A stretch of 47,284 bases of DNA from a virus. Its lineage: Duplodnaviria; Heunggongvirae; Uroviricota; Caudoviricetes. The first letter of the stretch is position 1, and the number at the start of each line of letters is the position of its first letter. The stretch lies in the IMG/VR virus record IMGVR_UViG_2718218305_000010, one strand, 5' to 3'. The position numbers are program-made. Below are positions 42,001-45,000 of this stretch, piece by piece.

Positions 42001-45000
42001 CACCTGGTGCTGCATGGCTTACCCCCTTGCTGACTGGTTTTACCTGTGCCCTGACGTGCTGCACGTGACGGGCAAATTTCTGCTCCCACTGAACCTGCGT
42101 GAAAACCTTCCCCTCCGCCATCCAGTAATCCCGGAATGCGGCAAGCTCAGCAGGTGTAAACTCAGGCTCAGGCAGAGCCATACCCCACAATGCAGCCCGC
42201 TGTCGAAAATCCAGCGACGGCCGCCAGACACCAGTCATCGGAAATTTCCCGATCGGTTCGCTCAGGCCATCCGGGTATTCAGGTTCTGCTGTCTGCAACG
42301 GCGCGCCATTCGACTCACTGGCTGGAGCACTCTCGCGCATGCGCGCGTTATGTGTGGGGTTTAATTCTTTATCTGTATCTGTATCTGTCGTGACTTGTCG
42401 TGACATATGCGTGACGCGTCGTGACTCATCGTGACAATCAGTGTTCTGCTCCCGCAGTCTTTCCCGCTCCCGCTGCGCTCTCTTGCGCTCTGCCGGGGAT
42501 TTTGCGGTTTGCGAAACATTACCGTTATCCTCCTTCATCACCTGGCGTTTTTCCCATCCGGAAATAAGATCGCCATCCAGAACTCGCCCCTGCATTGCAT
42601 GCAAAATTGAATCAATCACGTCTTCCGTCACATCAAGCGCACTTGCTAAATCTTCCGTCGTGACATCAATGTGACCACGTAGTGACTCGCCGTGACATTT
42701 CGTGACATTTCGTGACGCACTCACCAGAAGGTGGATATACACCGCCATCACTGTTGCGATTGGCTGTCCTGAGACCCTGGCAATGGTTCGCCATTTGGGA
42801 TCATTTGGCATGTCATGCCACAATCTGAGCCAGGCATTAGCCATACTCACCTCATCTGATACCGAACTTTACCCTCGAACATCCGGAAGAAATCCGGCAT
42901 GAATATTGTTGGTCAATGCACGACAACAGCATTACCAGGCTGACCCCCACTGTTAGTCAGGGTGCCCCAGGCGATCGCCGCTGCGACAAAATCATCCACA
43001 TCTTTCACCAGCCGATCCCTCCGTTCGACGATCTCACGGTAATATTCAGAGCTGTGACTGCGCATACGGGCCACCAGCAGAGGCGGCATTGCCTTTTCGA
43101 TCGCCGGTAACAGAGCCTGCATTTTTTCAACAGCATCAGGGGTGTCTTTATCCAGCCAACGGAAAATTTTCTGGGTATTACGAGCCAGGGCTTCCGGATG
43201 GCTGTCGTCGTACAGTTCCGGGAACGTCATCCCCAGTTCGAAATAAGTCCGGGCTATTTCAGCTGCAGGAACTTTCTCACCATCAGGATATGCCCAGGCA
43301 TTCATCGCCATGCGGATGTGCTCATGTTTGATTTTCATGAATCATTTGCCTCTTGATGCTTCGGGTATGATCGTTTTCGTCATTTGGTTGCTTCATCGAC
43401 ATATTCTGCGAATAACATGACGAGCGTCGTAAGTATGTCCAATCAACATCAGGACGAAGTTCTTCACACAGGACACCACCTTTTGTTGCTCGTTCAATCG
43501 CAGGACATCTCTCAGCAGGCAACTGACGTACACCTTTGATCCATTGATTTACGCTTGGAGGAGATACACCTAAAAGCCTAGCCATTGCTGATTGCCCACC
43601 GACAACAGCACAAGCTCGTTTGAATGAATAGTTATCTTTTTTCATCGAATGAACTCCAAAAAACACACAATAATATTAGGCTTAGCCTAATGCAATTGTC
43701 AATAGGCTATGCCTAACGCTTCGAGAGTAGGTATTGCCTAATGCGATGCGCATAGGAGACTATTAAGCAATGCTTAGTGGTAAAGACTTAGGCCGAGCGA
43801 TAGAGCAGGCCATTAACAAAAAAATTGCATCAGGAGCCGTCAAATCAAAGGCGGAAATCGCACGTCATTTCAAAGTCCAACCACCATCAATCCATGACTG
43901 GATTAAGAAAGGTTCGATAAGTAAAGACAAACTTCCAGAACTATGGCGTTTCTTTTCTGATGTGGTTGGTCCAGAGCATTGGGGGCTTAACGAATACCCC
44001 ATACCAACCCCATCCACTTCAGATACAAAAAGTGAACTTTTAGACATAAACAGCCTTTATCAAGCCGCCTCTGATGAAAAAAGAGCAATTGTGGCTTTCC
44101 TCTTATCTGGAAATGCTACGGAGCCTAGTTGGGTTGATCATGACGTTCGTGCCTACATTGCCGCAATGGAAATGAAGGTAGCTAACTATCTGAAAAATCA
44201 AGAATCAAAACGGAAAAGCCAGAACATCACCAAGACAGGAACTTAAACTTATATGGTCCGACGGGAAATTCCTAGTTCCCGTTAGTTAACTCCTACTACC
44301 TCTCCCACAAACCATCACCTATTAGGTCGCACCCAAATCATTAGGCGTAGCCTATTGACAAGCAATTAGGCATTTCCTATAGTTTTCCCATACCAACCCA
44401 TCCCGTCCCACACAATACAGGGCAATACCTAGAGTTACCCGGCAGTGGTCAGGGATTAAGTAGCCAGCCCGAGGCGTAAGAACATGACGGCAGGGTTCAA
44501 CTTTAACTATGCAGCAGGTTTTTGTTCCGCTACCCCGGCGTTAAGGGGATATGAGGTCAGCATGGATACTCTTGATCTTGGCAACAACGAATCTCTGGTG
44601 TGCGGCGTGTTTCCCAACCAGGACGGCACGTTCACCGCGATGACGTATACCAAAAGCAAAACGTTTAAAACCGAATCTGGCGCGCGTCGCTGGTTAGCAA
44701 GAAACTCTGACTAATGAAATCTGGTAATTAAGGAATCCTCCACGGGGGGAGAGTGGTGCACACGCGCCGGACACAAGCAAGCATCCGGCATGCTCTTTAA
44801 CAATCTGGATATCCATAACAGTAAAAATCTACAGATTGCCGTTCAGTTTTCTGGCCAACTCTTCAATAGATGGAGGTGATACGTAATCCGGATTTTTATT
44901 CATAAGAAACTGATTTTCACAGTACAGGCACCTGCTTTTATGAAAAAATTCATATTCTCTAACCGGGAATGGCTGAAGTATCGATACTATCTTTTGTCCA

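Follow-up and report, generated by a model that had tools for sequence, protein, structure and literature searches.

The DNA analyzed here, a stretch of 47,284 bp from IMG/VR record IMGVR_UViG_2718218305_000010 (the window), is a lambdoid prophage of the Rac family, integrated next to potC in E. coli O157:H7. We found that its immunity switch is real, lies where the first-pass annotation had placed it, and is Rac-like, of a type already known from the Rac prophage of E. coli K-12. We are highly confident that the region works as a lambda-like lysis-lysogeny (immunity) switch run by RacR, a repressor whose sequence shows no detectable relation to CI. The incremental addition of our analysis is a conserved, predicted pair of RacR operators with a promoter downstream of racR, which, judging from its sequence and conservation, would be the expected equivalent of lambda PL and OL.

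The repressor is identical to K-12 RacR at 145 of 158 residues (92%), without gaps and over its full length, and it passed the NCBIfam equivalog model NF049929 with 246.8 bits (E 8.8e-74; cut-off 200). RacR gave no Pfam match at E <= 0.01 and no PHROG or PDB sequence match, and the Pfam and PDB sequence searches detected neither a relation to lambda CI nor an S24 self-cleavage domain; RacR acts like CI without belonging to the lambda CI or LexA-type self-cleaving family. A repressor of the RacR type occurs in about 20% of complete E. coli genomes. Divergent from racR, the first gene of the PR operon encodes a YdaS that is 85% identical to K-12 YdaS and matches the Pfam families YdaS_toxin (PF15943, 3.9e-30, 103.9 bits, cut-off 30) and P22_Cro (1e-08). 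The YdaT that follows matches YdaT_toxin (PF06254, 2.6e-10, 41.1 bits, cut-off 21) and PHROG 163, 'CII-like transcriptional activator' (3e-47), and is 93% identical to PDB 8bt1, the YdaT of CP-933P (E 8.7e-80), but only 31% identical to K-12 YdaT. Alignment to racR, ydaS and ydaT, which the first-pass annotation had proposed as a check, thus identified the downstream genes as homologues of both. Since a CP-933P-type YdaT stands beside a K-12-like RacR and YdaS, the module is a mosaic.

Perfect matches to TAGGCNNNGCCTA occur three times in the window (OR1, OR2, and OL2 in our numbering; Table 1), where 0.02 would be expected by chance, and none of 100 shuffles reached three; the claim that TAGGC-N3-GCCTA operators stand on both sides of the repressor gene therefore held. 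Three further in-register sites carry mismatches and had been overlooked at first pass, as had the YdaT box described below. All six operators fall inside 43677-44379 and flank racR, with center-to-center distances of 26, 25, and 36 bp in the upstream set and 25 bp in the downstream set, which lies about 100 bp beyond the end of racR. The four upstream sites, perfect or with the mismatches given in Table 1, represent the consensus (T/A)TAGGC-n3-GCCTA(T/A) that was derived from DNase I footprints of purified RacR in work that placed one operator over the racR ATG (PMC9638921), as OR4 is here. OR4 corresponds to 'O3' of that study, a site overlapping both the racR start codon and the leaderless promoter PracR3, and the K-12 equivalent of OR1 is the region protected at the lowest RacR concentration (PMC9638921). 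OR3 has its imperfection at one and the same position in all homologous loci. Operator binding by RacR and repression of PydaS have been experimentally shown for the K-12 protein only (PMC9638921, PMC5700373).

A promoter scan of 43200-44900 returned exactly two sites, and both are interlocked with operators: the minus-strand promoter of ydaS-ydaT (PR) and a plus-strand TTGACA-N17-TATAGT promoter (PL), the same two that the palindromes had been said to overlap. In each, one operator occupies the spacer, with its final TA forming part of the -10, and a second lies directly against the -35. The PR hexamers are those of K-12 PydaS (-35 TTGACA, -10 TAATAT), which was mapped in 2022 along with three racR promoters, one of them leaderless (PMC9638921). 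Around these promoters, a hairpin after racR (44260-44283) was rejected as a terminator, being no better than shuffles (z = -0.70) and lacking a U-tract. A structured RNA or nut-like element in the conserved PL leader (44390-44565) was likewise rejected, as its fold was no better than shuffles (z = +1.38); an Rfam scan of this leader at gathering thresholds gave no match, and a search between PL and int turned up nothing resembling a terminator.

Table 1. Features of the immunity region and of other prophage modules in the window (positions in window coordinates; operator numbering is ours)
Feature	Position	Strand	Details
racR, prophage repressor, 158 amino acids	43770-44246	plus	similarity to K-12 RacR; NCBIfam NF049929
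ydaS-type gene, Cro analogue, 107 amino acids	43322-43645	minus	RefSeq coding sequence
ydaT-type gene, functional analogue of lambda cII, 141 amino acids	42913-43338	minus	
PR-equivalent (ydaS-ydaT)	43673-43702	minus	-35 TTGACA 43702-43697, 18-nucleotide spacer, -10 TAATAT 43678-43673
OR1	43677-43689		perfect, TAGGCTTAGCCTA; within PR spacer, 2-nucleotide overlap with -10
OR2	43703-43715		perfect, TAGGCTATGCCTA; abuts PR -35
OR3	43728-43740		TAGGTATTGCCTA, one mismatch
OR4	43764-43776		TAAGCAATGCTTA, palindrome, two mismatches; N3 spacer holds racR ATG
Lone half-site	44321-44327		ATTAGGT; 19 bp upstream of OL2
OL2	44342-44354		perfect, TAGGCGTAGCCTA; abuts PL -35
PL-equivalent (predicted)	44355-44383	plus	TTGACA-N17-TATAGT; 11 of 12 consensus positions
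OL1	44367-44379		TAGGCATTTCCTA, one mismatch; in PL spacer, final TA starts -10
YdaT box	43328-43345	minus	gene-strand sequence ATGATTCATGAAAATCAA; ydaT ATG in spacer; at ydaS/ydaT junction
Replication genes (DnaT-domain O-like and lambda P-like), PR operon	41353-42850	minus	downstream of ydaT; PF17948 4.5e-17, PF06992 1.6e-16
DUF1391 gene (ydaF homologue)	44562-44714	plus	first gene downstream of PL; PF07151 6.6e-30; RefSeq coding sequence
Excisionase and integrase (cut by window end)	45928-47284	plus	PL strand; potC next in complete genomes
Ant antirepressor gene	9517-10395	minus	PHROG 245, E 1e-110
sar antisense RNA	10397-10463	plus	Rfam 66.7 bits
Arc/Mnt-like ribbon-helix-helix open reading frames (two)	10698-10838; 10918-11172	minus; plus	

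In K-12 Rac, the genes have the same order and orientation, the six operators occupy equivalent positions, the ydaS promoter hexamers and the YdaT box are identical to those here, and a DUF1391 gene again lies downstream of racR. Together with the RacR similarity and the match between the palindrome and the published RacR consensus, these features uphold the initial description of the switch as Rac-like. Between the window and K-12, the half-sites differ at 1 of 40 positions upstream and at 1 of 20 downstream, whereas 4 of 12 positions differ in the upstream N3 spacers, 10 of 48 in the DNA between the upstream operators, and 10.5% in the coding sequence of racR (89.5% identity). The half-sites are thus conserved far above the DNA between them, which is the pattern expected of protein-binding sites. 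The lone half-site upstream of OL2 is part of a block shared without change by the window and K-12, whereas the half that would pair with it differs. We also observed that the C.Csp231I off-target site known from K-12 (CTAAG-n5-CTTAA on the complementary strand), which overlaps the operator at the racR ATG, is kept at 43763-43777; since the site is preserved, the lethal C.Csp231I cross-talk reported in K-12 could extend to O157 strains.

In the mechanism that we propose, RacR dimers would bind the 13-bp inverted repeats TAGGC-N3-GCCTA. With OR1 and OR2 occupied, PR, the strong ydaS promoter, would be blocked, while OR3 and OR4, which lie over the racR promoters and start codon, would serve autoregulation of racR. 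Occupancy of OL2 and OL1 would block PL, a second strong promoter, which points away from racR toward the DUF1391 gene, xis, and int. When RacR falls, PR would express YdaS as the Cro analogue, YdaT as the CII analogue, and the replication genes, YdaT would bind the box that spans its own start codon, and PL would open toward xis-int. At the sequence level, the locus has a lambda-type OR plus OL architecture, in that a second operator set sits on an outward, co-directional promoter downstream of racR. RacR probably binds at OL, and the OR and OL sets may interact by cooperativity or looping.

Using similarity to the RacR protein as the only criterion, we collected twelve loci from species-representative genomes. 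They belong to E. coli, E. ruysiae, Mixta, Proteus, Klebsiella, Achromobacter, and metagenome-assembled genomes labelled Nitrosomonas, Aeromonas, Pseudomonadota, and 'Candidatus Nanosynbacter'. Upstream operators stand at about -66, -41, and -6 from the racR start in 11 of the 12, good matches being missing only from the Aeromonas metagenome-assembled locus (L014). Upstream operators number four in Escherichia-type loci (-93, -67, -42, and -6) and three in other genera (-66, -41, and -6); the Escherichia type appears to have acquired a perfect operator unit by insertion between the PR -35 and an ancestral imperfect site. A downstream operator pair with 25-bp spacing is present in 9 of these 12 protein-selected loci. 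The recurring cassette consists of an operator, TTGAC(A), six nucleotides, and a second operator whose last TA begins a TA-NNN-T -10, and it occurs twice, one copy facing the cro-like gene and the other lying beyond racR and pointing in the racR direction. Mixta, Proteus, Achromobacter, the Pseudomonadota metagenome-assembled genome, and many viral contigs carry the downstream operator pair with its TTGACA cassette, and the 25-bp spacing, the abutting TTGACA, and the TA-NNN-T -10 are kept at repressor identities of 47-100%, even where the pair lies 1.2-2.6 kb from racR. In the isolated phage vB_EcoS-683R6, the genes racR, ydaG, ydaF, kil, ydaE, racC, recE, recT, ralR, xis, and int all lie on the racR strand. 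One locus, the 5.2-kb 'Candidatus Nanosynbacter' contig (L005, JARKOR010000130.1), holds a K-12-type Rac immunity region with the same six operators and a RacR 92% identical to that of the window, and is almost certainly a mis-binned E. coli contig.

A scan of viral contigs for one such cassette returned 120 stretches, of which 111 encode a RacR homologue. A co-directional downstream operator-TTGACN-N6-operator cassette was present in 77 of 80 distinct sequence combinations, 0.57-2.6 kb from the racR start, a figure that is biased, as the contigs were picked by the cassette itself; 9 of 12 is the fair figure. Besides this bias, several points weigh against the proposed switch. Operator binding by the window's own RacR allele, and any binding at the downstream pair, are predictions from sequence. 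The -10 boxes of the K-12 racR promoters differ here, GAGAAT of the leaderless promoter being GAGACT at 43755-43760 and AGTAAG not being conserved. The left operon is truncated, with ydaG deleted, a convergent gene interposed, and the exonuclease reduced to a pseudogene, and PL may therefore have little left to drive. Finally, YdaS of K-12 had no repressive effect on racR, in contrast to lambda Cro (PMC9638921), so that the switch is no strict copy of lambda.

The YdaT box has one mismatch to the CP-933P consensus TTGATT-N6-AATCAA and is identical to the footprinted K-12 'YdaT-box' (PMC11879457). The box is not significant by count (0.29 expected at <=1 mismatch; 26 of 100 shuffles yield a match), and the case for it therefore comes from its position and its identity with K-12. 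Across about 3,500 E. coli genomes, ydaT homology mostly stops at query positions 431-434 (window 43343-43346), the outer edge of the box. The box thus moves together with ydaT, whereas the adjacent cro-like gene varies (Cro/CI, YdaS, or another helix-turn-helix protein), and window 43343-43346 looks like a mosaic junction.

Several features set the prophage apart from K-12 Rac. It carries a CP-933P-type YdaT, has lost ydaG, and has no kilR, racC, recET, or ralR in its left arm; a DnaT-domain O-like gene and a lambda P-like gene replace ydaU/ydaV, and it is integrated at potC, not at ttcA, the site of Rac. CP-933P of E. coli O157:H7 (paaR2-paaA2-parE2 / ydaS-ydaT) shares the 93% identical YdaT and a YdaT box at the ydaS/ydaT junction, but its repressor is PaaR2, with other operators, followed by a ParE2 toxin-antitoxin pair, whereas here RacR is followed by no such pair. 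Its PR, PRM, PL, and PRE promoters have been demonstrated, with PL regulated by the repressor and YdaS (PMC8630535). As in lambda, the divergent repressor and cro genes share tandem operators, and a second operator set sits on a promoter that follows the repressor gene and reads in the same direction. Both also have xis-int at the end of the left operon and a CII-type activator site at the start of the gene in the cII position. The tandem operators are 25-26 bp apart here and 23-24 bp apart in lambda. On the other hand, the core operator is 13 bp here and 17 bp in lambda, there are four upstream and two downstream sites instead of three and three, one operator overlaps the repressor start codon, and RacR shows no detectable sequence relation to CI.

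An alternative is that the sites are primarily operators of YdaS, the Cro analogue, or are shared equally by YdaS and RacR. Cro and repressor share operators in lambdoid switches, RacR and YdaS are reported to compete for the operators in K-12, where YdaS also represses its own expression (PMC9638921, PMC11014345), and the PaaR2 and YdaS footprints overlap in CP-933P (PMC8630535). However, the TAGGC-N3-GCCTA consensus came from footprints of purified RacR (PMC9638921), and the motif tracks the conserved RacR N-terminal domain across genera, whichever divergent gene is present. We regard a YdaS-centered assignment as rather unlikely, though it keeps an appreciable share of our belief; it complements a RacR-run switch and does not exclude it.

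The first-pass annotation had also suggested that the module may act as an addiction system, in which YdaS and YdaT kill upon repressor loss and so stabilize the prophage, much like a toxin-repressor or toxin-antitoxin pair. In K-12, racR is undeletable unless ydaS-ydaT is removed and derepression is lethal (PMC5700373, PMC5700377), YdaS of the window shares 85% identity with its K-12 counterpart, and Pfam names both the YdaS and the YdaT family 'toxin'. That label is disputed, however: from their genetic context, YdaS and YdaT are widely taken for analogues of Cro and CII (PMC5917428). YdaT here is of the CP-933P type, for which no toxic effect was detected and YdaS-YdaT was judged not to be a toxin-antitoxin module (PMC8630535). 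Rac excision mitigates the lethality in K-12 (PMC11014345). With PR repressed, no toxin pool would accumulate and loss of the whole element should go unpunished, and death upon repressor loss is common to any inducible prophage. The locus does not fit the definition of a type II toxin-antitoxin system either, in which a labile antitoxin is co-transcribed with the toxin and neutralizes it by protein-protein contact; here the repressor is divergently transcribed and acts on DNA. At most, the arrangement makes the racR gene hard to lose and leaves the prophage as a whole unprotected; as stated, the addiction proposal was not supported, and we consider it improbable.

It is very improbable that the palindromes are chance or structural repeats, such as hairpin terminators or leftovers of duplication, with only the upstream sites mattering and the downstream pair being a non-functional relic. 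A terminator scan did mark OR1 as a weak hairpin with a T-rich tail, but OR1 was rejected as a terminator, since it lies upstream of the predicted PR start and so outside the ydaS transcript, and since it belongs to a phased set of six. The chance expectation for perfect sites is only 0.02, the half-sites are much better conserved than the DNA between them, and the downstream pair keeps its spacing, TTGACA, and -10 across repressor homologues of 47-100% identity.

Returning to the RacR-run switch, we tentatively put forward, at somewhat less than even confidence, a wider generalization. The cassette [TAGGC-N3-GCCTA]-TTGACA-N6-[TAGGC-N3-GCC(TA]NNNT) may be a portable unit, of which two oppositely oriented copies surround every RacR-family repressor gene; the octamer reported for K-12 RacR may bridge OR1-OR2 and OL2-OL1 (665 bp apart), looping out racR as lambda CI does with OR and OL; and the fourth upstream operator of Escherichia may have been gained by insertion of one 25-26-bp unit.

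As to what could trigger the switch, LexA control was rejected, with no CTGT-N8-ACAG box in the whole window, and since RacR also lacks an S24 domain, RecA-driven cleavage of RacR is unlikely. We also observed a P22 immI-like module at 9517-11172 (Table 1). Given that RacR has no self-cleavage domain and that the window has no LexA box, this antirepressor module could be an inducer of the switch.

Downstream of racR, the gene order is DUF1391 gene, a convergent gene, a truncated exonuclease, excisionase, and integrase. Where K-12 has ydaG and ydaF, the window has the DUF1391 gene alone: relative to K-12 Rac (L002, 3323-3457), about 138 bp with ydaG are missing at window 44484-44561. A conserved short upstream open reading frame (18 codons in K-12) is fused in frame to the DUF1391 gene, giving a reading frame of 76 amino acids; RefSeq starts the gene at 44562. 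The convergent gene (171 amino acids, 44829-45344, minus strand) belongs to PHROG 1244 and had no Pfam, NCBIfam, or PADLOC match; it opposes PL, occupies the place of the opposite-strand exclusion gene sieB in Rac, and is possibly a moron or exclusion gene. The 3'-5' exonuclease gene (Rv2179c-like, 45429-45866) is a RefSeq pseudogene without its N-terminus; the early-left arm is degraded. A reading of these flanking genes as a defense system was rejected, as PADLOC gave a single match, of an exonuclease effector to the truncated exonuclease (E 0.003), and none for the other three proteins. Elsewhere in the prophage, an ALIL pseudoknot (13581-13697, plus; Rfam 121.5 bits) suggests an insertion sequence in the structural region, as this is the frameshift element of transposases of the IS3 family. 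We also noted the sok antitoxin RNA (37734-37908, minus) beside hokD, a type I toxin-antitoxin pair, and the small RNA STnc100 (33944-34110, minus). According to one paper, the potC prophage of its UK strains corresponds to none in Sakai.

Previous work on RacR has centered on the racR-ydaS side. In 2017, three palindromic repeats in the intergenic region were found to be bound by RacR, with three complexes in electrophoretic mobility shift assays (PMC5700373); in 2023, four inverted repeats were mentioned and RacR octamers were shown (PMC11014345); and in 2025, the K-12 YdaT box was footprinted, with the ydaT ATG in its spacer (PMC11879457). The RacR regulon has been described as not yet characterized in detail (PMC11014345). 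A search of the openly available literature found no description of a RacR operator pair downstream of racR, of a RacR OL/PL, or of looping. A drop in RacR raises ydaF, ydaG, and kilR of the left arm 40- to 70-fold (PMC6765115), and the predicted PL/OL pair would directly explain why left-arm genes (ydaG/ydaF, kilR, recET, and others) rise at low RacR. The putative OL pair may also offer a substrate for studying long-range looping by the RacR octamer. The importance of our findings is mainly one of annotation: they correctly label the immunity region of a common potC-located prophage of O157:H7, in which the 'toxin' names of YdaS and YdaT are misleading.

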